DNA from: a virus
Reading direction: 5' to 3' (one strand)
Length of the DNA stretch: 64,000 nucleotides
IMG/VR virus record: IMGVR_UViG_3300036800_000175
Coordinates: 45,877-109,876 of that record
Positions 7,885-54,527 of this stretch are shown here, piece after piece (position 1 is the first letter of the stretch; each line of letters begins with the position of its first letter). The notes under the pieces are model-generated. The model was not told the DNA's origin. It was given only the letters and a program-made list of their open reading frames with translations, and did no database searches. A program made the translations under genes and the position numbers.

Positions 7885-8489
7885 GCGGCCGCCGCGTCGC
7901 TGGCCAGTTCCTCGAGCACGCCTGCGTACTCGCCCAGGTCGGCGGGCACCGTGCCGTAACCGAGGGGGTACCGCTCGAGGTTGTGCACCTCAGCGGCCAT
8001 GACCTTGAGGTTGTGGTCGGTCAGCCACGCGCGGGCTAGCCGGCTGCTGCGGGTGCCGGCGCGGATCTTGACCAGCAGCACCTGGGGGTACACCGGGGAC
8101 ACGGCGTCGATCTCGGCGGCCAGGGCGAACGTGTCGGGCAGCTGCTCAAGTTCCATGGGGCTCGGGGCGACCGGGATGAGCAGCTCGTCGGTGATCATCA
8201 GTGCTTTGCGCAGCAACAGGTCGTCGTGGGGGCTGGTGTCGATGAGGATGTCATCGAAGTCGCCGGCGATGGCCTGGATGCTGCGGACCAGGTCGTCCCC
8301 GAACGCGAGCACGGTGACTGACCCGGGCCAGTCTGGGGCCAGGGCTTTCCATTTCAGGCAGGTTTTGTTGGTGGTGTCCTCATCCACGATGAGGACCCTC
8401 CGCCCTTGCCGGGCGAGGGCGAGCGCGAGGTACACGGTGGTCGTGGATTTCGCCACGCCACCTTTCAGATTGCCTATGGTTGCCTTCAT
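7881..8489 (-). CDS. parA: ParA partition ATPase
   Basis: MKATIGNLKGGVAKST deviant Walker A; LIVDED; ILIDTSP; LLIPVAPS. Confidence 0.9.
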   Translation of the reverse strand: MKATIGNLKGGVAKSTTTVYLALALARQGRRVLIVDEDTTNKTCLKWKALAPDWPGSVTVLAFGDDLVRSIQAIAGDFDDILIDTSPHDDLLLRKALMITDELLIPVAPSPMELEQLPDTFALAAEIDAVSPVYPQVLLVKIRAGTRSSRLARAWLTDHNLKVMAAEVHNLERYPLGYGTVPADLGEYAGVLEELASDAAAA

Positions 8490-23032: not shown

Positions 23033-23614
23033 TCACGGCGCGGTCCGGAGGGTGACTTTGACCGTGCAGCCGTAGCCGCCGGGGTTGGTGCCGGCGAACT
23101 GCGCCCGGTAGCCGCGGGCCCGCAGCCAGGACTCCACAGCGATCGCGTTCCCGCCTGAGTTCAGCCGCAGCAGCACCGCATCCCCGGCCCGGTCAACAGC
23201 GATGAGCGCGTCCGGGGCGTCATATTTGAGCCGGTGCGCGATGGCCCGGCGGGCATGGGCGGCCAGGGCGCGCGTGTTCAGCCGGATCGGGTAGGTCGCG
23301 ACGCGTGTCCCATCGGGACGCCACTCCGGCAGCAGACGGCGGCTCACAGGGCGGCGGTCGGTCCCTAGCCGGGTCACGGCCCTGCGCCAGAGCGCGGTCG
23401 CCGCGTCTTTGGTCACGCCCAGCCGGGCAGCCAACTCCGCCCAGGTGTCCCCAGGATGGTCACGGCGGGCGCACACCACATCCCACGCGGGGGTTTCGGG
23501 TAGCAGCCGGCCGCTGGCCAGCAGCCGCCGGGCCGTCTCCTGATCGCGTTCCGCGGCCCTGGCCTGCCGTCGTACGTTGCTGGCCCGCAGCATCTGTAGA
23601 CGGTCGGTGGTCAC
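23033..23614 (-). CDS. protein with WhiA C-terminal HTH-like domain fused to unknown domain
   Basis: SNVRRQARAA...RRDHPGDTWAELAARLGVTKDAATALWRR resembles actinobacterial WhiA NLRRSARAA...H..ASLEELG...TKDAVAGRIRR. Confidence 0.6.
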   Translation of the reverse strand: MTTDRLQMLRASNVRRQARAAERDQETARRLLASGRLLPETPAWDVVCARRDHPGDTWAELAARLGVTKDAATALWRRAVTRLGTDRRPVSRRLLPEWRPDGTRVATYPIRLNTRALAAHARRAIAHRLKYDAPDALIAVDRAGDAVLLRLNSGGNAIAVESWLRARGYRAQFAGTNPGGYGCTVKVTLRTAP

Positions 23615-24039
23615 CGCTCCGCCTCCGGGGCTACCTCGGCCCACCATGTGCGCGTCCCCGTGTCCGGGTTCGGCTCGACAGCAGCCACTAGGTTGTTTTC
23701 GTCAGCCATGCCGCCCGGTGGCACGGGACCATCACCTGAGTAGACCGACAGTGAGCGCCAGCCCTGCCGGTAGCGGTCCTCAACGACAGCGGCGACGGCG
23801 GCGGGGGTGAGGATCATCCGGCCTTGCACCTGCCCGCCGTGGGAGTTGACGCCCCGCCAGCGGTATGCGGCCTCCCCGGCCGGCGGATGGTTCCTGTTGC
23901 AGCCGACGTCGCCGCAGCCCAGATTCGGATGTGCTCTGACGTGGCCAACTTCGGCGCACCGCTCGCAGTGGCCCGGCAGGCCGACCGACTGGCGTTCTGA
24001 GTTTGAGCCAGCGAACTCATGCGTTGGGTAAGGCACCAT
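23611..24039 (-). CDS. hypothetical protein with duplicated Cys/His N-terminal module
   Basis: N-terminal ~50 aa nearly identical to 24896..25381. Confidence 0.65.
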   Translation of the reverse strand: MVPYPTHEFAGSNSERQSVGLPGHCERCAEVGHVRAHPNLGCGDVGCNRNHPPAGEAAYRWRGVNSHGGQVQGRMILTPAAVAAVVEDRYRQGWRSLSVYSGDGPVPPGGMADENNLVAAVEPNPDTGTRTWWAEVAPEAER

Positions 24040-24557: not shown

Positions 24558-24899
24558 TCAGTCCTCGACGGCGAGGCGCTCATTGGCCTCAGCTGCGACG
24601 CGCGTGGCATGTGCGATGACGTCCATGAGCGCTGGCACGTACTCCGTGCGGACGCCACCCAGGCCGAGGTTTTCCGGCAGCTCGATGACCGCGAACACCC
24701 CGGGGGCCACCTCGTCAGTCTCGGTGATCTTCACCCACACCTGGGGACGGGTGTCGAACATGGTCAGCCCAGCTGCGGCGTCGCCGCCGTCGAACTGGGC
24801 GAGCACGCGAACCTTGCGGAAACCGTCCAGTTCCCAGCGGATCTTCTCGGCGTCTAGGTCGCGCGACCCGTCGGTGACCCTGATCGTGTAGTTGCTCAT
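24558..24899 (-). CDS. hypothetical protein
   Basis: 113 aa, ATGA coupling. Confidence 0.6.
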   Translation of the reverse strand: MSNYTIRVTDGSRDLDAEKIRWELDGFRKVRVLAQFDGGDAAAGLTMFDTRPQVWVKITETDEVAPGVFAVIELPENLGLGGVRTEYVPALMDVIAHATRVAAEANERLAVED

Positions 24900-25381
24900 G
24901 GGGTTCGGGCCCTCTCATTTTCGGCGGCGGTTTTCATCGCGGCGCTGATCGCGGCGATCACAACCTGTGCCGGGGTGCCAGCGTGGAAGTCGGCAGTCCA
25001 GCGGTTCGACCAGTACGGCACCAGCGACGCCGAGTTCAGGTGGACGCACGGGGCCGGGGCAGCGGGTGCGGGGACCGAATTGCCGCGCGGGTAGACAGCG
25101 ACGGTGATCATCGTGTCCGCGACCTCGCGGAGGTACCAGCGGGCATGAGGCCGGCCGGTGTCCCGTTTCCGGGTGAACCCGCAGGCGGTCAGCATGTCGT
25201 AGATCGGGGCCAGGTCGGTCACTGCCGCCGTTGGATGATCCCGGTCGCAGCCGACGTCGCCGCAGCCCAGATTCTTGTGAGCCCTGACGTGGCCGAACTG
25301 CGCGCACCGCTCACAATGTCCCGGCAGGCCCACCGACTGGCGTTCAGAGTTCGAGCCAGCGAACTTATGTGTCGGATACAT
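24896..25381 (-). CDS. hypothetical protein with duplicated Cys/His N-terminal module
   Basis: First gene of leftward operon; GGAG RBS. Confidence 0.65.
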   Translation of the reverse strand: MYPTHKFAGSNSERQSVGLPGHCERCAQFGHVRAHKNLGCGDVGCDRDHPTAAVTDLAPIYDMLTACGFTRKRDTGRPHARWYLREVADTMITVAVYPRGNSVPAPAAPAPCVHLNSASLVPYWSNRWTADFHAGTPAQVVIAAISAAMKTAAENERARTP

Positions 25382-27284: not shown

Positions 27285-27658
27285 CAGGTCACCCCCGCCG
27301 CTGCGGACAGCCGGGTGATCGCGTCGCGGAGCATCGGCAGATGCCAGTGCGCCGGGTCAGGGCGGCCGCGGATCTCATCCGCCACATGGGCCAGCAGGTA
27401 CTGGATGTCTTCCCGCCGGACGATCACGTTGCTGCTCGGTGCTATTGAGGGGACGCCGCTGCCGAGCTCCGTCAGCGCGTGGCGGAACAGCCGCATCACC
27501 TCATCCACCCCGTCGCAGCAGGTCAGGACATTCAGCCCGTTGTTCCCTGTGGCTGCGATGGCGTAATGAGAGTTCTCCGCCAGCGGGATACCGGCGGCCC
27601 GGGCCAGCAGGGCGCGCACCTCACCAACGGTGACGTCTTCCCCCGGTGCTGTCGTCAT
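27284..27658 (-). CDS. hypothetical protein
   Basis: 124 aa, TGATG coupling. Confidence 0.55.
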   Translation of the reverse strand: MTTAPGEDVTVGEVRALLARAAGIPLAENSHYAIAATGNNGLNVLTCCDGVDEVMRLFRHALTELGSGVPSIAPSSNVIVRREDIQYLLAHVADEIRGRPDPAHWHLPMLRDAITRLSAAAGVT

Positions 27659-27814
27659 CAGTCGTCATCCTCCCTGTCTCCGTCCTCAGCGCAGAGCCAG
27701 CCGCCGTGGCCGGTGCTGTAGGCGGCGAGGAACCACGGGCCAAGCATCAGGCGTCACCCCTCAGGATCGTTAGGGTACCTACAGTGACCTGCCGTTCCCT
27801 GCGGACACGGCGCA

Positions 27815-28369
27815 TCAGGCTGTCCCCCGTGCCGCCGCGGTGCGGGCGGCGGCGTACAGCAGGGACGCCATCGACGCGGGCGGGATCGGGTGCACCTCGC
27901 GGAACGGCGCGGCGATGACCTGCTGCAACCGCCACCCGCCGGCCCACCGCCGGGCCGCCAGCAGTCCCCACCCCGGCGGCAGTTCCCCGTCTTTCACGAT
28001 CACCTGGTCAGGGACCGCCAGCCACCAATACGAACACCACCCCATGCAGGCCGCAGCCTTGCCGGGCGTTTTGAGCTCGCGGAGCCAGTCGGCCCGGCTG
28101 ACTTTGACCTCAACGCCGTGGATGGCGCATTTGCCGCTCGCCCAGGTGTCCACGGCGACGAAATCAGCCGTCCTGGCCGACGGGTCACCACGGTCAAAGA
28201 ATCCGCTCTTGGCGCGGACGTGCTCGGCCTTGACGTACTGGGGTTTCGGGACGCCGCCGTTGTGGCTGACGAAGCCGTACCGTTTGTGCAGCAGCTCAAG
28301 CATGTCCCGCTCCGTCAGCGGCCGTGCCGCCAGGACGGGCATGTCGGGGAAGGTGTCCGGTGCGGTCAT
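27815..28369 (-). CDS. MmcB-like PD-(D/E)xK nuclease-fold protein
   Basis: TADFVAVDTW...HGVEVKVSRADWLREL..P.K. Confidence 0.7.
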   Translation of the reverse strand: MTAPDTFPDMPVLAARPLTERDMLELLHKRYGFVSHNGGVPKPQYVKAEHVRAKSGFFDRGDPSARTADFVAVDTWASGKCAIHGVEVKVSRADWLRELKTPGKAAACMGWCSYWWLAVPDQVIVKDGELPPGWGLLAARRWAGGWRLQQVIAAPFREVHPIPPASMASLLYAAARTAAARGTA

Positions 28370-28506
28370 GTCTCTCCCCGCGCGATCTGCTGGGCGCGGG
28401 TGACCACGTCAGCGCGCATCACCGGCCCTGCACACCTGTCAGGAACGACGCCGTTTGCACGGAGGGCAGGGGGGCGGGCTCATCGGGGGGGAACCCGGTG
28501 GTTTCG

Positions 28507-28917
28507 TCAGGCATCGTGCGCGGTCCTTCCGGTTGGGGGGGTTACGCGGCTTCGCGGCGGACGCCAAGGGCCGCGGTAGGCGCACCCGGAGGTGCAGGTT
28601 TCCCTGACGACGACCTGTGTCAGCGGCAGCGAGCCGGTGAGCCGGTCCCAGATCCAGCGGGTCAGGTTTTCGCTGGTCGGGTTGGCCAGGCCAGGTATCT
28701 CGTTGAGGTAGTGGTGATCCAGTTGGGTGTGCAGCGGCGCGAACGCGTCCTTGAGATCCCCGAAATCCATCACCCAGCCCGTGTCCGGTCCGACGGGACC
28801 GCTGACGTGGATCTCCACCCGGTAGGAGTGGCCGTGCAGCCGGGCGCACTTGTGCCCGTCGGGAACATGAGGCAGCCTGTGAGCTGCCTCAAAGGTGAAC
28901 TCGCGGGAGATGTCCAT
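28507..28917 (-). CDS. queD: 6-carboxy-5,6,7,8-tetrahydropterin synthase
   Basis: FEAAHRL...[10 protein letters not shown]...MDFGDLK...LDHHYLN...NPTSEN...RET. Confidence 0.95.
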
Positions 28918-29559
28918 TTACGGGATCCCCAGGTATTTGTGGGTTTGCAGGCTGAGCCGCCACGCGGGGTGCGCGAGGCAGTATTCGACGGCGAGGCGGG
29001 TGTTTTTCTCCCTGTCCGGCCCGTCCATCGGTTGCAGCAGCAGCCGCGGGAACCCGAGATCCTCAAAGACGGCGGGGTCAAGGTCGTCTTGCGGATAGAC
29101 AAGTTTCAGTTCGTCGCCGCGGGTGAGCCGCAGCGTGGTGCCGCGTTTGGGGCTGACACAGATCCAGTCCAGACCGGGCGGCGGGTCCTGGGTTCCGTTC
29201 GTTTCAACAGCGACCTCAAACCCGGCGGTCTGCATCGCGCGGACTGCGGCCTGGTCTAGTTGCAGGAGCGGTTCCCCGCCGGTGCACACCACGAACGGCT
29301 GCACCCGCTCACCCCTCGCCCCGTCCCACGCGGCCGACACCGCGGCAGCCAACTCGAGCGCGGTGGTGAACCGGCCGCCGCCGGGGCCGTCGGTGCCGAC
29401 GAAGTCGGTGTCGCAGAACTGGCAGATCGCACGGTGCCGGTCCCGTTCCCTGCCGGTCCACAGGTTGCAGCTGGTGAACCGGCAGAACACAGCTGGCCGG
29501 CCCGCATGGGTGCCTTCGCCTTGGAGGGTGTAGAAGATCTCTTTCACCCGGTACGTCAC
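28918..29559 (-). CDS. queE: 7-carboxy-7-deazaguanine synthase (radical SAM)
   Basis: [14 protein letters not shown]...[30 protein letters not shown]. Confidence 0.95.
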
Positions 29560-30245
29560 CGCCGGTCACCCGCCAGTGCCGGGTCAGGGATGCCGAGTTC
29601 GGTGAACGCCGCAGCGCGCACACTGCACGCGCCGCACGCACCGCACGGGCCGCCGGGTGCGGGGTTGTAGCAGCTGAGGGTCGGCGTGTAGTCCACGCCC
29701 AGCCTGAGACCGTGCCGGATAATCGCCGCTTTGGTCATGCGGATCAGTGGGGCCCGGATCTGGACGGGGCCGGCGCTGGTCGCCAAGCCGGCCATCTGCT
29801 GGAACGCGGCCAGGTATCCGGGCCGGCAATCCGGGTATCCGTCGTGGTCGCCGGCGTTGACACCGATGAAGATGTCCCGTGCTCCGATGGTTTCGGCCCA
29901 GGCCAGCGCGAGGGACAGGAACACCGTGTTGCGAGCTGGCACGTACGTCGCGTCGATACTGGCGGCCGGCCCGGCGGGCACGTCGGCGGCCGGGTCGGTG
30001 AGCGCGGATCCGCCGAACACGCTGACATCCACATCCAGGATGAGGTGCCGCACGACGCCCTGCGCGGCGGCGACCCGGCCCGCAGCGGCGAGCTCAGCTG
30101 CGTGCCGCTGGCCGTAACGGAAACTCAGCGCATACGGGGCGAAACCTTCGCTGCGGGCGACCGCCAGGACGGTCGCTGAGTCGATGCCGCCGCTGAGCAG
30201 CACCACAGCTCCCCGGATGGCTGAACGCGGCGGGGCAGTGATCAT
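29556..30245 (-). CDS. queC: 7-cyano-7-deazaguanine synthase
   Basis: [28 protein letters not shown]...CGACGAC..R. Confidence 0.95.
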
Positions 30246-31009
30246 GACGCCTCATCCCATAGGAAGCCCTGGTCGCGGGCGGCGAGTTGCTGCCGGGCCA
30301 TGACCTCGTTGAGGCACGGCGGGGCCTGATGGCGCTCGATGCGCTCAGTGAGCACGTCGGCCCGGGTTTCGTTGGTGGCGGGCATGTAGACCCCGCTCGC
30401 CCAGTTCCCGTCGATGCCGATGTTGCGCGCCACGTTCGTTGAGTCAGCCGACGCCATCGGCACGGCGGCGACGATGCGGTGGCTCAGCATGCGCAAGCCG
30501 TGGAGTTTGGTGACCGGCTGCCCGTTCCGGCAGATCGCGGGCAGCACCTTCGGGTCATAGAGGCGTCCAAGGCACTTCGACGGTGCCGACACGTCCCACT
30601 CGGCGGCAGAGCCGAGCGCCACCCGCGGCCACTCACCAGCCAGCCGTACCAGGCGCTCAGGTGATTCGTTCAGGTGCCACACAGGGACGCCGCGGTGGCC
30701 GAACGGCCACGCGGTGAGCAGTTCGTCGTTCTCATCCTCAGTGCCGCCGATGACGTCGGGGATGATGGCCCAGTCACACGCCGGGTGAGCGAGCCACTTA
30801 TCGCACCACCTGTAATACGCCTGCCAGTCCACCGCCTTCCCCTGCTTCCAGAGCGTGAACGCGCCGCAGTCGAGCGCGAACGTCTGGCAGATCGCGGCGG
30901 CCAGTTCGAGTTGGCGCGGCTCAGCGAACGATATGAAGGCGTGCCGGCCACGCCATACCCGGTAGGCACATGTTTCGGGCGTGATCGGGCCGCCGTGGTA
31001 GTGGATCAC
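30242..31009 (-). CDS. TGT-fold protein, candidate DpdA-like 7-deazaguanine DNA transglycosylase
   Basis: ALDCGAF, IPDVIG, KLHGL, SADST motifs recall TGT/DpdA catalytic motifs; coupled to queC. Confidence 0.55.
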
Positions 31010-31635
31010 TACGCTGCCGCCTCACGGCGGACGCCGCACGGCCGGGCTTTCGGGTCGTCCATGTCGATGCCGTCCCACGCGGCGGGAGGCGCGTGACCGT
31101 GCTGGCGGGCTTTCCCCGCAGTGTGATTAGACGGGCCGGGGTGGTTGGCCAGTTCGTCGTAGACGGTGAGTACCCGGGTGGCCATCCGCACCGATACCCG
31201 ATCCACGTAGATCCGCGCCAGCAGCGACCGGGATGAGTAGCCGGCGCGTTCCGCGATCACTGCGCCGGGCCAGCCCATCCGCATGAGGGCCTGCACCCGG
31301 CGCCTGGTCCCGGTCGACGGGACGCCACGCCGGGACTCACCGGCCGGGCGGAGCGGGACCGCCAGGATCGCTTGCTCATTCCGCGCCCGGATCCGCTTGA
31401 CCCTGCCGGTGTACAGGTAGTACAGGTTCGCGGTGCCGGTGACGGCCTCAGCGGCGATCTGATCCCACGTCCACCCGTACACCTCACGCAGCTGCCGCAG
31501 GTGCTCACGGGCCAGCCCGCCACCACGGAGCCCACCCCGGCCCGTGTGCAGCCGGTAGCGGTAGTCAGGCCCGCAGAACCCGTCGGTCTCGCGTGGCCCT
31601 TTGCAGCCGGGCCGGGCGCACGTCGGGGCGGTCAC
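31009..31635 (-). CDS. actinophage HTH DNA-binding protein
   Basis: GWTWDQIA; GTRRRVQALMRMGW; APPAAWD.IDMDDP. Confidence 0.7.
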   Translation of the reverse strand: MTAPTCARPGCKGPRETDGFCGPDYRYRLHTGRGGLRGGGLAREHLRQLREVYGWTWDQIAAEAVTGTANLYYLYTGRVKRIRARNEQAILAVPLRPAGESRRGVPSTGTRRRVQALMRMGWPGAVIAERAGYSSRSLLARIYVDRVSVRMATRVLTVYDELANHPGPSNHTAGKARQHGHAPPAAWDGIDMDDPKARPCGVRREAAA

Positions 31636-32102
31636 GCGGCACCGGCCAGTGTGTTCGCGTCCTGTCCGGCGGCCTGGTCGCGGTCGGTGAGTTCCTGGCA
31701 CTGCCACAGCACCCGAACCTCACCGCCGGCCAGGTCGGCCAGTTCCGCGGCCGCCTCATTGCGCCACTCCCAGCCGACGTCATCCCAGTCAGGCGCGATC
31801 AGCTCATACGCCTCAGCGGCCTGCCGTGACAGTTCCTGGCAACGCGGGCAGTACCCGCCAGTGCTTATGTTGCGGGTCCGGCGGCACCGGACACCCATCC
31901 CGCCCCGGCAACGGCCCTTGACCGGCACCAGCGCCTCAGCTAGCACCCCGACCAGCGGGTGCAGGTCGGTGTCGCCGGTGTGACGCAACGGCGGCGCCGG
32001 CCGCGGCGCGGCGGGTTCCACGCCACACTGATCCGCGATCACATCCAGCAGATCACGGAACAGGTCATCAAGCGACGCCGGGGCCTCACCGCCGGTGGTC
32101 AT
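31632..32102 (-). CDS. hypothetical protein
   Basis: CPRC motif, coupled. Confidence 0.5.
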   Translation of the reverse strand: MTTGGEAPASLDDLFRDLLDVIADQCGVEPAAPRPAPPLRHTGDTDLHPLVGVLAEALVPVKGRCRGGMGVRCRRTRNISTGGYCPRCQELSRQAAEAYELIAPDWDDVGWEWRNEAAAELADLAGGEVRVLWQCQELTDRDQAAGQDANTLAGAA

Positions 32103-32275
32103 GCTGCGGGCTCCCGCCTGGTAGGGCCCGGGCGGTCGGTGATGGTGACGATGCGCCTGCCAGTCCAGCGCTGCCGGCTGGTCGTGATCAGCGGTGCGCA
32201 AGCGTGAGGCTCATACTCGCCGCACGTCTCGCAGATACGCCGGGGGCGGGGCGCGCCGCCCGGGGTGGCAGTCAT
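32099..32275 (-). CDS. 58-aa Zn-ribbon peptide (not in ORF track)
   Basis: MTATPGGAPRPRRICETCGEYEPHAC...; ATGA coupling both ends. Confidence 0.45.
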   Translation of the reverse strand: MTATPGGAPRPRRICETCGEYEPHACAPLITTSRQRWTGRRIVTITDRPGPTRREPAA

Positions 32276-32625
32276 GCTGCGGGCTCCCGCTTCGCGGGCT
32301 GCGGCGTGGATGGTGTCACCCGCGGCCCGGCGATCTTGGCCTCAGCCACCCGGGCGTGAGCGTCGGCGCGGATCTTCGCCGCCGCCTCAAAACCGAGCGG
32401 GTCGGCCTTGCGTACGGTCGGGTCGTTGCACGCCTCGATCAGCTCGCGGGGGTGGGCGTCCTCACGGCCGAGTAGCCGCGACGCGTGGCCGTAGAACTGC
32501 GGCCAGTCCCAGGCCGCGCGGACCTGCGGGTTGGCTGCTGCGCCTTCGAGGGCGCGGGCCCAGTCGGGGCCGCGCATGACGGCGGCGAGGTCGATCAGTT
32601 CACGGTAGGCAGGGTTGATCGTCAT
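32272..32625 (-). CDS. hypothetical protein downstream of initiator (helicase-loader slot)
   Basis: MTINPAYRELID start; ATGA coupling. Confidence 0.55.
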   Translation of the reverse strand: MTINPAYRELIDLAAVMRGPDWARALEGAAANPQVRAAWDWPQFYGHASRLLGREDAHPRELIEACNDPTVRKADPLGFEAAAKIRADAHARVAEAKIAGPRVTPSTPQPAKREPAA

Positions 32626-33638
32626 GAGACTGCGGCTTTCTGGTCGTTCAGGGGGTGGCAGTTCGGGCAGCGCTTGGGGGTGTCGGGCTCTCCGACCCAT
32701 CTGTGTTCCGTGCTGGTGCACTCGCCGCACCACGGCGGCCAGGACCCACGGCCGGGTGGCGCGGCCTGCTGGGCCGCGGCGAGATCCCACCAGTCCCCGT
32801 CGTGCTCGAGGCGGCCGGGTTGCTTGGAATCGCGGCGACGGGCGACGTCGATCATGGCGGGGCGGGCCAGTGCCCAGCCGCGTTCGATGACGGCGGGCCG
32901 GGTTAGGGCGCGGCGGATGGATGAGGTAGGCCAGGCGGGGCGGATCTCCCGGACTTCCGCGATGAGGGCGTCAATGTCGGCGGGGTTGATCCCTTGGAAA
33001 ATTTCCCCCTCCCCCTCCGTTTGGACAGCGGCCATCAGGGGCGGCTGCTTCCATGCCGGCGGGGGGGTAGGGGGGGTTATCTTCTTGTCTTCTCTTCTAT
33101 GGGCGCGACTGTCGCGCGACTTTCCGGCCTGGTTATCCACAACTTGCAGGTCAGGGGGTGGCTGTGGAAAACCCGGCGACCCCAGTTCGGCGGTGTCGCC
33201 GCTACTAGTCGCGGAGGGTGTCGCGCCACTAGTCGCGCGACCTGTAGCGCGACTGTCGCGCGACACTTGAACGTCCCGGGCGTCACGGGCGGCCCGCTCA
33301 GATGCCCGTTTCGCCGCCATCCGTTCCCGGTCGGCCCTGCGTTTCCGCTCAGCCGCGTCGCTCAGGTTCCGTTCCTCATTCCAGATGTCCGGATTGAGCA
33401 GGTAACCCCGGTCTTCCTCAAGCCAGATCTCTTCGCTGACCAGAGCTTTGACCCGCCTGTCCAGGTCCGGGCCCGCGAACCGCGGCACCTGCGTGCGCGG
33501 GATGAAGCCCTGAGACTCTGCGCTGGTCAGGTAGCACATGCTCTCGATCAGCAGCCACCCGGCGCCGGGTGCGCTGTGCTCCGCAGCCTGGACGCATGGC
33601 TGGTCCGGAAGCGACGCGTAGAGGCGGCACCATTCCAT
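32622..33638 (-). CDS. phage replication initiator-like protein
   Basis: MEWCRLY N-terminus, RRADRERMAAKR segment, low-complexity repeat-coded linker, C-terminal CGEC...CPNCHP. Confidence 0.65.
   Translation of the reverse strand: MEWCRLYASLPDQPCVQAAEHSAPGAGWLLIESMCYLTSAESQGFIPRTQVPRFAGPDLDRRVKALVSEEIWLEEDRGYLLNPDIWNEERNLSDAAERKRRADRERMAAKRASERAARDARDVQVSRDSRATGRATSGATPSATSSGDTAELGSPGFPQPPPDLQVVDNQAGKSRDSRAHRREDKKITPPTPPPAWKQPPLMAAVQTEGEGEIFQGINPADIDALIAEVREIRPAWPTSSIRRALTRPAVIERGWALARPAMIDVARRRDSKQPGRLEHDGDWWDLAAAQQAAPPGRGSWPPWCGECTSTEHRWVGEPDTPKRCPNCHPLNDQKAAVS
33077..33266. repeat. iteron-like GTCGCGCGAC palindromes with adjacent AT-rich tract (candidate lytic origin)
   Basis: GTCGCGCGAC at 33111, 33232, 33255; 18-mer direct repeat at 33103 and 33247; degenerate copies between. 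Confidence 0.6.
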
Positions 33639-33746
33639 GCAGTCACCTCCCCCGCTTCTTGTTCAGATAGGGCGCCTCATGCAGGCGCGCTTGCTTCCGC
33701 TTCAACAGCACCATGTGCGCGAGCGTCGCGGCGGTGTCCGTCCCGT

Positions 33747-35315
33747 TCATGCGGCGGCCCCGCGGCTGCTGAGCTCCGGCATGGCCAGCCCGCTCGCCAT
33801 CGCCACCACATGCGCGGCCAGCAACGGCGGCACAGCGTTGCCGACCTGCTCAAACTGCTTCGTCCGCGTGCCCTGCCACGGGTAATCCGGCCTGAACGAT
33901 TGGAGTACCGCGGCTTCCTGGACGGTGATCCGCACAGAGTCTTGGGCGGCCGAGACGGCGTCCTTGGTCACCCACTGGCACCGGGTGTTGGCGGTGATGC
34001 TCACTGCCGGCCCGCTGCGCAGGATCCAGTCCTTGGCCTTCGTGGTCACGGCGTGCGCGGGGCGGGTTGCCGGGTCCATCTCATGAGTGCCATGGGTGCC
34101 GCTGCCCGTGGCTTTCGGCCCGGTCCACGGCTTGCCGAACGAGGTGCGCAGCACCCACCGGCCGCTGTCGCGCTCAGCCTCGAGCAACTCGCGGCCGCGG
34201 GTCGGGAACGGCTCAGCGCCGCCCGTGGACGTCCCCCCGGCGGTCACAGCGGGCCCGGGGCGGCTGGTCGCACCCCAGCCGAGGGCGTCGGCCATCGACA
34301 CCCACAGGGCGCCCCACAGCTGCATGCCTTTGCGGGGGTCGTAGTGGGTCGGTTCGGGCCGGTACACCTTCCGGACGCGGGAGGCGACCAGGATGGCCCG
34401 TTCCCGGGTTTGGGGCACGCCGTAGTCCGCGGCGTTGAGTTTCCCGCACCAGACCGAGTAGCCGCGGGCCCGGAGTTCCCCCGCGTAGACCCGCCACAGC
34501 GGGAGGACTGCGGGGACCTGCTCAAGCGCGACCCATTCGGGCTGGCCGGCGTGGATGTACCGGGCCGGCTCGATCACCAGCGATGCCGACCGGACGGCAG
34601 CCCAGATCTTCGCGGAGCGCTGAGCCCGGGTCGGATGCGCGCTGCTGCCGGCCGACGCGGCCATGTCGCGCCGCAGCCTGGCCGGTGAGCCCCTGCGGGC
34701 CAGCAGCTGGCGTTTCCATCCCGCCTGGTTGTCACGGCGCCAGATGTGCGCCATCAGGTCGGGCTTGCAGGCCAGCGGATGGGGCGCCGGGCGGTCGGCA
34801 CCCCACTTCGACACCCGCAGCGCGTGGGCCATCTCCCGGCGCCGCAGGGCGCGTGTCGTGCGCCCGGCCATGGCGTCGCGGATCCCTGCGGCGAGGATCG
34901 CCGTGACGACGTTCCCCGCCTGGTCGCCGGCCGCGCTGAACGTCGTGCAGGGCGGGGAGTGGACCTGGCCGCGAGTCTTCCCGGCCAGCCGCTCGAGGGG
35001 GAACGTGGCGACGTCCGCGCGGATCGTCGCGTGGCCGGCTGCGCGGCGTGTGGCGCAGGCCGCGGCGTCCAGTTCGATGCCGAGTTCGGGGAGGCCGAGC
35101 ATCCGCAGCCCCTCCGCCCAGCCGCCCGGCCCCGCGCAAGTCCCCAGCGCCTCGATCAGGCCGGGGGTAGCGCCCGGAGGGGCGGCGGGGGACACCTCCG
35201 CCCCTCCGGGCCCGGCCGCGCTCCCCGGGGGAGAGTGGGGATCACGCGCGGCCGGCCCAGCCGCTGCCCGGGTAGTGTCAGCAGCGGCGGCCTGGTGGGT
35301 CTCAACAGCGGTCAT
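33747..35315 (-). CDS. C5 DNA cytosine methyltransferase
   Basis: CAGPGG, SPPCTTFS, LEQVP, YGVPQTRER, LQSF, QVGNAVPP. Confidence 0.9.
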   Translation of the reverse strand: MTAVETHQAAAADTTRAAAGPAARDPHSPPGSAAGPGGAEVSPAAPPGATPGLIEALGTCAGPGGWAEGLRMLGLPELGIELDAAACATRRAAGHATIRADVATFPLERLAGKTRGQVHSPPCTTFSAAGDQAGNVVTAILAAGIRDAMAGRTTRALRRREMAHALRVSKWGADRPAPHPLACKPDLMAHIWRRDNQAGWKRQLLARRGSPARLRRDMAASAGSSAHPTRAQRSAKIWAAVRSASLVIEPARYIHAGQPEWVALEQVPAVLPLWRVYAGELRARGYSVWCGKLNAADYGVPQTRERAILVASRVRKVYRPEPTHYDPRKGMQLWGALWVSMADALGWGATSRPGPAVTAGGTSTGGAEPFPTRGRELLEAERDSGRWVLRTSFGKPWTGPKATGSGTHGTHEMDPATRPAHAVTTKAKDWILRSGPAVSITANTRCQWVTKDAVSAAQDSVRITVQEAAVLQSFRPDYPWQGTRTKQFEQVGNAVPPLLAAHVVAMASGLAMPELSSRGAAA

Positions 35316-35318
35316 CGG

Positions 35319-35822
35319 TCACACGCCGGCCGGGTCATAGGGGGTCAGCGGCATGTCGGCGGGCACGTACAGGGGATGCCACGGCTGGCCGATGCAGGTG
35401 ACGCCAAGACAGAGCAGGGAGACGCCGGCGTCGGCCAGCATCGCGGTGACCTGCTGCGCGCGGCTGCGGCGGATCCCGTGGTTGCCCCACGCGGCGACGA
35501 CCCGCACCCCGGGCTGGCAGTGGGCGCGGATGTAGTCATCGTTGCCGGGCCCGACCGGGTCGGGGTGGCGGGACAGCTCGCGCGGGTTGGTGGCACGGAG
35601 AGCGAACAGGTTGACCACGATCAGCTTGGACGCCCGTTCACGGTCCGCGAAGCCTATGCATCTGCGGGCGGTCGGGTCATTGATGTACCGGCTGGCGGTT
35701 GAGGGGTTCAGCATGATCATCACGAGTGCCGGCCCGTGGCCGGCCAGTTCCCGGGTGAGCTCATAGCGGTACTCGCCGGTGTCGGCCGGGTCATCGAGGG
35801 GGAACAGTGGCTCAGCGGTCAC
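35319..35822 (-). CDS. DUF1643 family protein
   Basis: YRYEL.R, IMLNPSTA...DPT, VNLFALRATNP, AAWG, P.HPLY. Confidence 0.9.
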   Translation of the reverse strand: MTAEPLFPLDDPADTGEYRYELTRELAGHGPALVMIMLNPSTASRYINDPTARRCIGFADRERASKLIVVNLFALRATNPRELSRHPDPVGPGNDDYIRAHCQPGVRVVAAWGNHGIRRSRAQQVTAMLADAGVSLLCLGVTCIGQPWHPLYVPADMPLTPYDPAGV

Positions 35823-53792: not shown

Positions 53793-54527
53793 ATGACAGC
53801 ACCAGCCGTCCAGACCGTCTATGAGGCATGCGAGGAAATGCTCACCCGCTACACCCCGGTCGCCACCCGCGTCGAAGGACACAACAGGTCGATCGTGATC
53901 CGCGCCGGAGGTAATAGCCACACGTTCTACGTGCTGGCGCAGGACCTGGACGACGGCACCTGCCACCTGTTCCCGTGGTACACCGGGCTGTCCAGGACCA
54001 CCGTGATCACCCCCGGCCTGGATGTCCGCGCCGTCCCCAAGCATGCCGTCCAGCTGCTCAGGCATGGTGTGCCCGTCCCGCAGCACGGGATCGCGTTCGG
54101 CTGGGTTGGCCGTGGCGACCGGGTCACCGCCCTGGTCCCGGTCGACGTTGAGTACCGCCCGGACAAGCCGCTGCCGACGTTCGCTGTGATGCCGCATGAG
54201 GACGCCGGACGCAACGACTGGCCGCCGTTCTATAACGCTGAGGTGTTCGGCCCGGAGATGTGGGAAGCCCAGCGGGCGGGCCGGCTGGTGGTCCTGGACG
54301 ATGCGATCGCCAGCACCGCCCAGAACGTCTCCTGGATCGAGCGGACCGACGGGGAGGCCGCCAGTTACTGTGACGTGGGCACCGATGTCGCCTGGGATGG
54401 GTTCACCATCCCGGCCGGCCGGTACGCCTACTGGCGGCGCCTGCTGTCCCGCGACCGCCGCTGGCCGTCGCCCACCGAACTGCTTGATAACTACACCGCA
54501 TCCGACCTGGCCCCCCGCTTCCGCTGA
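53793..54527 (+). CDS. hypothetical protein
   Basis: 244 aa, AGGAG RBS. Confidence 0.7.
   Translation: MTAPAVQTVYEACEEMLTRYTPVATRVEGHNRSIVIRAGGNSHTFYVLAQDLDDGTCHLFPWYTGLSRTTVITPGLDVRAVPKHAVQLLRHGVPVPQHGIAFGWVGRGDRVTALVPVDVEYRPDKPLPTFAVMPHEDAGRNDWPPFYNAEVFGPEMWEAQRAGRLVVLDDAIASTAQNVSWIERTDGEAASYCDVGTDVAWDGFTIPAGRYAYWRRLLSRDRRWPSPTELLDNYTASDLAPRFR

Follow-up and report, generated by a model that had tools for sequence, protein, structure and literature searches.

A short phage DpdA-family protein encoded with QueC, QueE and QueD in a soil actinomycete phage, and a predicted route to preQ0 in its DNA

Modification of DNA with 7-deazaguanines is a major counter-defence of phages, and an operon in a large (110-kb) soil actinomycete phage raises the question of which base its products would insert, and into which acceptor. 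The operon lies in a stretch of 64,000 nucleotides (the window) that corresponds to bases 45877-109876 of the 109,876-bp IMG/VR virus record IMGVR_UViG_3300036800_000175. The record is rated complete by CheckV, the window has a G+C content of about 70%, and coordinates below are those of the window unless the record is named. Among sequencing runs, the sequence was found only in its probable source, a soil metagenome, and in no RNA data set. A 255-amino-acid protein is encoded there directly ahead of QueC, QueE and QueD. Judged from its sequence, this protein extends the already known short "DpdA-only" clade of phage DpdA proteins by one member, and does not represent a new family. The four genes probably constitute a self-contained DNA-hypermodification module, which would place 7-cyano-7-deazaguanine (preQ0) in phage DNA (dPreQ0) as a protection against restriction.

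The queC-queE-queD operon and its leading genes

A sequence-only reading of the window had described four open reading frames on the minus strand, the first of which was taken to encode a transglycosylase. All four were recovered at their reported positions, and the 255-residue translation contains each of the motifs DCGAF, PDVI, LHGL and SADST. Together with the gene directly upstream, the features are:

31009 to 31707, minus strand: upstream gene, 232 amino acids, phrog_1590 (E 7.3e-42), no function assigned
30242 to 31009, minus strand: short DpdA-family transglycosylase (predicted from phrog_887, E 6.8e-71, a structural model and hhalign), 255 amino acids, GTG start
29556 to 30245, minus strand: QueC, preQ0 synthase, 229 amino acids (PF06508, E 6.6e-68; TIGR00364)
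28918 to 29559, minus strand: QueE, 7-carboxy-7-deazaguanine synthase of the Cx14CxxC radical S-adenosylmethionine type, 213 amino acids (TIGR04508, E 2.8e-103)
28507 to 28917, minus strand: QueD, 6-carboxytetrahydropterin synthase, 136 amino acids (TIGR03367, E 7.5e-33; PF01242, E 6.9e-38)

All three Que proteins score above the NCBIfam equivalog cut-offs (QueC, TIGR00364, 181 bits against 150.3; QueE, TIGR04508, 344.2 bits against 240; QueD, TIGR03367, 112.8 bits against 89.25). The stop codon of the dpdA-like gene overlaps the start codon of queC in the sequence ATGA, in agreement with the translational coupling proposed earlier. The queC and queE genes overlap in GTGA, and queD starts directly after the queE stop codon (TAAATG). 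At the other side, the end of the phrog_1590 gene overlaps the GTG start of the 255-codon frame (TAGTG), so that the same transcription unit may begin with the phrog_1590 gene. With these four junctions, the five genes are tightly stacked. The upstream 232-residue protein has no Pfam or PADLOC match, and a promoter and terminator scan of positions 27600-33800 returned nothing useful.

Across the whole 109,876-bp record no match was found to GTP cyclohydrolase I (PF01227), FolE2 (PF02649) or QueF (PF14489), which do match in control genomes, nor to the tRNA-guanine transglycosylase (TGT) family PF01702 at E ≤ 10, which matches in 14 of 14 control genomes. The absence of folE and queF, first noted for the window, therefore holds for the entire record. 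At 229 amino acids, QueC is without a Gat domain and, since the record has no QueF either, preQ0 is the expected end product of the pathway. No amidotransferase or DpdC-like gene was recognised among the neighbour genes of the operon.

Family, fold and predicted active site of the 255-residue protein

The group to which the 255-residue protein is assigned, phrog_887 ("queuine tRNA-ribosyltransferase"), also takes DpdA of phage CAjan (E 8.2e-96), DpdA of the Pseudomonas phage PaP007 (E 4.1e-86), whose phrog_887 member is annotated as DpdA, DpdA of phage 7-11 (E 7.1e-74) and the protein of Athena1 (E 4e-89). By tblastn the closest cultured relatives are Vibrio phage Athena1 (61% identity) and then SfI, BTP1 and SPN3UB (55%), together with Klebsiella and Escherichia prophages (52-55%). 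From there the matches grade down to the canonical DpdA1 of VpKK5, EC151, Sonali and Megan. DpdA of Salmonella phage 7-11 shares 34% identity with the 255-residue protein (E 2e-33). Relatives at 79-83% identity occur on long contigs (among them P0011, P0023 and P0029). The family as a whole is large, with 5,625 proteins at E ≤ 1e-5 (clustered at 90% identity) and 2,935 clusters at 50% identity (E ≤ 1e-3).

Several of the cultured relatives were catalogued before. In Supplementary Data 1 of Hutinet 2019, the DpdA column names Athena1 AUG84879, SfI, SPN3UB, BTP1, HK106 and 7-11, and for the last five every other pathway column is empty (PMC6884629). AUG84879 is the coding sequence under the best tblastn match of the 255-residue protein. 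The same study described a third group of 76 phages with "DpdA but no G+ or preQ0 biosynthesis protein homologs", and a gamma-proteobacterial singleton cluster in its similarity network, the possible functional divergence of which was left to further work (PMC6884629). It also validated DpdA of CAjan, as deletion of the gene abolishes dPreQ0 (PMC6884629). The sequence-only reading had presented the gene as unassigned, part of an uncharacterised family and a candidate new DpdA type. That part of it falls, because phrog_887 includes the validated CAjan DpdA and homologues at 55-61% identity were catalogued in 2019; the protein belongs to a DpdA clade that has already been described.

To compare the family with DpdA1, a profile from a 29-sequence alignment (members down to 46% identity) was aligned by hhalign to a DpdA1 profile from six phage sources (CAjan, Rosebush, Sour, Megan with two paralogues, PaP007 and Erebus). 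The two profiles match at 98.6% probability (E 8.4e-16) over 142 columns, with the following correspondences between the 255-residue protein and DpdA1:

D47-x-G-A-F aligns to DSGAF
P-D85-V-I-G aligns to LDxIGD
H112 aligns to HFG
H170-G aligns to HG
D189-S aligns to DSS

Invariant in the 29-sequence alignment are Y4, H5, G6, G7, P8, D47, G49, A50, D85, H112, G133, S134, H170, R173, D189, S190 and N192. The second position of the D-x-G-A-F motif, residue 48 (positions 30868-30870), is a Cys in the 255-residue protein. Among 383 family sequences with the motif, this residue is Asn in 367, Cys in 10 (the 255-residue protein and its close relatives) and Ser in five. We considered whether Cys48 marks a dead enzyme and rejected this idea, as the Cys is shared by nine close relatives, and Ser occurs at this position in five members and in DpdA1. 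Among the DpdA1 sources, Microbacterium phage Megan (L108:670-2543) carries two tandem DpdA paralogues (319 and 305 amino acids) 5' of a long QueC-like gene.

The AlphaFold2 model of the 255-residue protein is a TIM barrel of eight beta/alpha units (predicted local distance difference test 87, predicted template modelling score 0.85), the fold that a TGT-type assignment calls for. Residues D47, D85, H112, H170, D189, S190 and N192 lie at the C-terminal ends of beta strands. Structural comparison of the model with 48,161 PDB representative chains (VIA-align) gave as the three best matches Cap10 (9NTN; Z 15.5, 229 residues aligned), an archaeosine (archaeal) TGT (Z 14.7) and the bacterial DpdA 7UI4 (Z 13.7). 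The last, a DNA preQ0 insertase, was aligned over 213 residues and has the highest sequence identity among the structural matches (16%); bacterial TGT and QTRT2 rank lower. In a library of viral structures, the model matched the actinophage DpdAs of Mufasa8, Sonali, Megan and Tinciduntsolum.

In bacterial DpdA, the general acid/base is Asp95, followed four positions later by Phe99, whereas Asp130 reads the base and Asp256 is the nucleophile (PMC10164549); the catalytic pair of Cap10 is His226/Asp248. D47/F51, D85 and H170/D189 match these known catalytic residues in order, and the His/Asp pair does so in spacing as well. From this alignment we predict D47, D85, H170 and D189 to be the catalytic residues. 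The zinc site CXCX2CX22H and the helical insertion Ins8 are conserved across the bacterial DpdA family (PMC10164549). As the 29-sequence alignment contains no invariant Cys and the chain ends approximately 65 residues past D189, the 255-residue protein lacks both.

These matches bear on two other acceptors. The protein could be a tRNA-guanine transglycosylase that modifies tRNA of the host or the phage with preQ0 or one of its derivatives and so tunes translation during infection. Its fold and catalytic motifs are common to the tRNA enzymes, and "queuine tRNA-ribosyltransferase" is the name given by both PHROGs and RefSeq. That name, however, is a transferred annotation; PF01702 does not match even at lenient E-values, the 255 residues hold neither a zinc subdomain nor tRNA-binding insertions, and the nearest characterised homologues act on DNA. 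We regard a tRNA target as quite improbable.

A function like that of Cap10, in which a 7-deazaguanine is attached to protein (deazaguanylation) or to another acceptor that is not a nucleic acid, is suggested by the position of Cap10 as the best single structural match and by the similar spacing of the His/Asp pairs (H226/D248 and H170/D189). The lead of Cap10 over TGT and DpdA is only 1-2 Z units, though, and the sequence profile joins the family to phage DpdA1. Moreover, QueC is a true equivalog and is accompanied by QueE and QueD. Of ten proteins searched with PADLOC, QueC alone matched, with nothing for the DpdA-like protein or eight neighbours and no CBASS (cyclic-oligonucleotide-based antiphage signalling system); the partners CD-NTase and Cap9 were not found. 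Taken together, this makes a protein-directed role very improbable.

Genomic context and base supply across the family

If the family uses preQ0, its genes might be expected beside genes for preQ0 synthesis or uptake, and the context of 185 loci, drawn from collections of viruses, genomes and metagenomes, was surveyed. The flanks were searched with the Que proteins of the window, the Que and FolE proteins of CAjan, Rosebush and Sour, and two YhhQ-like proteins. A locus was scored as linked when a que or YhhQ-like gene lay within 3 kb; positives were accepted at any flank length and negatives only where each flank reached 1.5 kb or more. A FastTree phylogeny was built from 144 non-identical family proteins. 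Genes of the que pathway adjoin family members in at least six gene orders:

Window: dpdA-queC-E-D
L103 (Bryobacteraceae metagenome-assembled genome): dpdA-queC-E-D
L113 (81% identity): queC-E-D-dpdA
L040 and L042: queE..dpdA-queC
L134, L135 and L137: dpdA-queD, directly 5' of the large terminase gene
L189: queE-queD-dpdA
L122: queC/queD-dpdA

None of these que-linked loci yielded a FolE match. In one of them, a metagenome phage (L135:7447-11010), the short dpdA stands with queD between the small terminase gene and the large one, an arrangement that recalls the que cluster directly 5' of the terminase in Rosebush and Sour. Two metagenome representatives appear to be fusions of the DpdA-like domain, one to QueD of the 6-pyruvoyl tetrahydropterin synthase family (P0247) and one to a D12-class N6-adenine (Dam-like) DNA methyltransferase (P0261). 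In both, the DpdA domain is missing its first 17-41 residues, so that they may be merged gene calls; they were counted as adjacency only.

In about 30 metagenome loci, the short dpdA has as its direct neighbour a gene for a YhhQ-like small membrane protein (L111, L117-L120, L123, L124, L126, L128, L129 and L144-L188, and L112:7372-8004, plus strand). The protein of L112 belongs to phrog_4899, is 32% identical (E 1e-15) to CAjan gp41, a "putative preQ0 transporter", and gives sub-threshold matches to the queuosine-precursor transporter models TIGR00697 and PF02592. This locus shares synteny with the window: it encodes a DpdA of 82% identity, and a C5 methyltransferase gene and a counterpart of window 32622-33638 lie upstream. 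The importer-like gene of L112 occupies the place of queC-E-D, with no queCDE within 8 kb, whereas the window phage has queCDE and no importer. Hutinet 2019 found no correlation of YhhQ with any phage group (PMC6884629); within the short dpdA clade, a correlation with a YhhQ-like gene seems to exist.

On the tree, the clade of the 255-residue protein (99% support) consists of four que-linked rows, three yhhQ-linked rows and one short contig, and in the enclosing clade of 18 rows, 15 of the 16 informative ones are que- or yhhQ-linked. In the enterobacterial/Vibrio prophage clade (57 rows), que and yhhQ neighbours are entirely absent. Of the 52 informative loci in the rest of the family, 39 have a que or yhhQ gene within the linkage distance, so that the association of the gene with que or preQ0-importer-like genes extends through the family. 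The que label requires at least eight changes on the tree even when only well-supported branches are considered, which points to repeated gain and loss. It is plausible that phages of preQ0-making hosts carry the enzyme alone, and that other phages bring a synthesis cassette or an importer.

The recurrence of these neighbours bears on a reading in which the que genes serve small-molecule metabolism, supplying a 7-deazapurine nucleoside or a queuosine precursor to the host, and the TIM-barrel gene is an unrelated neighbour. QueCDE cassettes of Actinomycetota that lack insertion enzymes do make toyocamycin-type metabolites (bioRxiv 10.64898/2026.04.15.718813). Against such a role, the stop and start codons of the dpdA-like gene and queC overlap, the family recurs beside que or preQ0-importer genes in many gene orders and lineages, the 255-residue protein is homologous to DpdA, and no tailoring genes were seen among the neighbours. 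We consider a purely metabolic role extremely improbable.

Other genes near the operon are also of the kind involved in DNA metabolism:

33747 to 35315, minus strand: C5 cytosine DNA methyltransferase, 522 amino acids (PF00145, E 1.4e-22)
35319 to 35822, minus strand: DUF1643 protein (E 3.7e-39), which follows the methyltransferase and forms a pair with it, 2.7 kb upstream of the operon
27815 to 28369, minus strand: MmcB-like, PD-(D/E)XK-type "DNA repair protein" (phrog_5429, E 6.9e-23; PF06319 sub-threshold), the next gene 3' of queD after a gap of 137 nucleotides

With these three genes nearby, the operon lies in a DNA-metabolism region that includes a second modification enzyme, and the phage probably carries two different DNA modifications. 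Further along are two paralogous small genes (23611-24039 and 24896-25381, both on the minus strand), the products of which have unrelated C-termini and a near-identical Cys/His-rich N-terminus (..THEFAGSNSERQSVGLPGHCERCA..GHVRAH.NLGCGDVGC..); the one at 24896-25381 has no Pfam or PHROG match.

The sequence-only reading had placed the operon on a temperate phage-plasmid. One ParA-like AAA_31 domain is present in an open frame of 581 amino acids (window approximately 8136-8480, minus strand; record 54012-54356) and is the only partition-like gene found, and the whole record has no match to an integrase, a tyrosine or serine recombinase, or ParB_N. This is consistent with a phage-plasmid, and not proof of one; the suggestion is plausible and peripheral to the function of the operon.

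The predicted product and comparison with known systems

The reading that we favour, and hold to be probable, starts from host GTP cyclohydrolase I (FolE), which would provide dihydroneopterin triphosphate (H2NTP). Phage QueD, QueE and QueC would convert this through 6-carboxytetrahydropterin (CPH4), then 7-carboxy-7-deazaguanine (CDG), to preQ0. The minimal, zinc-less DpdA would then exchange guanine for preQ0 in double-stranded phage DNA after replication, by a double displacement of the TGT type. D189, paired with H170, would be the nucleophile, D47 the putative general acid/base, and D85 the residue that reads the base. The resulting dPreQ0 should protect the phage DNA from host restriction enzymes. 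Both the identity of the inserted base and its level are inferred. A DpdA-type function on a TGT fold is well supported by the predicted TIM barrel, the profile homology to DpdA1, the motifs and the linkage to que or importer genes. The dPreQ0 insertion with help of host FolE that the sequence-only reading had proposed likewise stands as well supported by fold, homology and linkage, its claim of an uncharacterised family aside.

A number of observations weigh against this reading. The 255-residue protein has no match to a Pfam family at E ≤ 1, to NCBIfam or to PADLOC, and searches of PDB-chain sequences with the protein and with the family profile returned nothing meaningful; it is through these blanks that the gene looked unassigned. 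TGT-family chains score Z 13.2-15.5 in the structural comparison, and unrelated TIM barrels reach 13.6, so the fold search supports kinship with the TGT superfamily and cannot by itself prove it. The zinc site and large Ins8 of bacterial DpdA are absent. DNA as the acceptor, rather than tRNA or another molecule, is suggested by homology alone. Nearly all phages with QueD, QueE and QueC in the 2019 catalogue also carry FolE (PMC6884629), which makes the absence of folE here unusual. Finally, in 7-11, the only analysed phage with a relative in the short clade, the modified base is 7-amido-7-deazaguanine in DNA (dADG) at a very low level (0.02% of G), and not preQ0.

This last point gives rise to the most serious rival, in which the enzyme class and the DNA target are the same and the product differs, being 7-amido-7-deazaguanine (ADG) or CDG, or only a small, motif-specific fraction of G is replaced, as marking and not as broad shielding. 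DNA of 7-11, whose DpdA is 34% identical to the 255-residue protein, contains 50 dADG per 10^6 nucleotides, about 0.02% of G, and no dPreQ0 (PMC6884629). In addition, DpdA2 accepts any of preQ0, preQ1 and CDG, and the extent of modification differs between subfamilies, from <0.1% to 100% (PMC10516641). On the other hand, the intact equivalog QueC would make preQ0, and not CDG, the accumulating base, and no DpdC-like or amidotransferase gene was recognised nearby. CAjan and Rosebush, which combine DpdA with their own preQ0 pathway, have about 30% of G replaced by dPreQ0 (PMC6884629). We therefore judge a different or low-level product to be unlikely.

A broader proposal, for which we likewise see only a modest chance, is that the short zinc-less clade forms a functionally distinct, minimal transglycosylase with an interchangeable base supply (queCDE, a YhhQ-like importer or the host), the product or purpose of which differs from bulk dPreQ0 shielding. 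By analogy with the 0.02% dADG of 7-11, this could be a low-level, motif-specific 7-deazaguanine mark. If so, a plasmid-like prophage could use such a mark to identify itself or to evade modification-dependent defences.

For the favoured dPreQ0 module, the present results leave the current picture of how such systems work unchanged, and their interest is modest. To our knowledge, the "DpdA-only" phages are the largest catalogued DpdA phage group and have never had a clear functional anchor. The operon and the family census tie the short clade firmly to preQ0 supply, be it from its own queC-E-D, from a YhhQ-like importer or, in the enterobacterial prophages, presumably from the host. They also expose an annotation gap, as a family of thousands with no Pfam, NCBIfam or PADLOC model is mostly labelled "hypothetical". 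A zinc-free DpdA of 255 residues that comes with a cassette of three supply genes would also offer a compact means of producing dPreQ0-containing DNA.

Comparison with the known systems sets the operon in place. With the tRNA-guanine transglycosylases (bacterial TGT, the archaeosine TGT ArcTGT, PF01702), the 255-residue protein shares the superfamily fold and the D-x-G-x-F motif; it differs in having no Pfam TGT match and no zinc subdomain, in being approximately 120 residues shorter, and in its phage DNA-metabolism context. Cap10 of type IV CBASS (9NTN) is likewise a compact TGT-family barrel with a His/Asp catalytic pair, but its reaction, carried out together with Cap9 and a CD-NTase, concerns a base linked to protein; partners of this kind are absent here, and QueC is genuinely biosynthetic. 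The bacterial DpdA of S. Montevideo (7UI4) has the same TIM-barrel transglycosylase fold, and counterparts of its Asp95/Phe99, Asp130 and Asp256 can be assigned. The bacterial Dpd system differs in its zinc site, its 128-residue Ins8, DpdB (a ParB-like ATPase) and dpdC-K, none of which was found here.

The DpdA1 phages with a full pathway (CAjan, Rosebush) resemble the window phage in having DpdA beside queC, queD and queE, and dPreQ0 in DNA is predicted here as well. Their DpdA proteins are homologous to the 255-residue protein, with the catalytic motifs in register and CAjan DpdA in the same PHROG, but are longer (306-385 amino acids, the termini being extended) and have a core identity of only about 23%; CAjan and Rosebush encode FolE, which the window phage does not.

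The closest likeness is to the "DpdA-only" (singleton) group, with which the protein shares the family, the size of approximately 235-255 amino acids, the motifs and phrog_887, at 55-61% identity to Athena1, SfI, BTP1 and SPN3UB and 34% to 7-11. In that group, which consists of gamma-proteobacterial prophages, the gene stands alone and host preQ0 is needed, whereas here, in an actinophage of 70% G+C, it heads its own queC-queE-queD operon; in the lineage of the window, a Cys also replaces the family Asn of the D-N-G-A-F motif. What is new, and modestly so, is that in an actinophage a member of the singleton clade comes with a queC-E-D cassette of its own that lacks folE, and that a relative in synteny has a YhhQ-like importer gene instead of the cassette.

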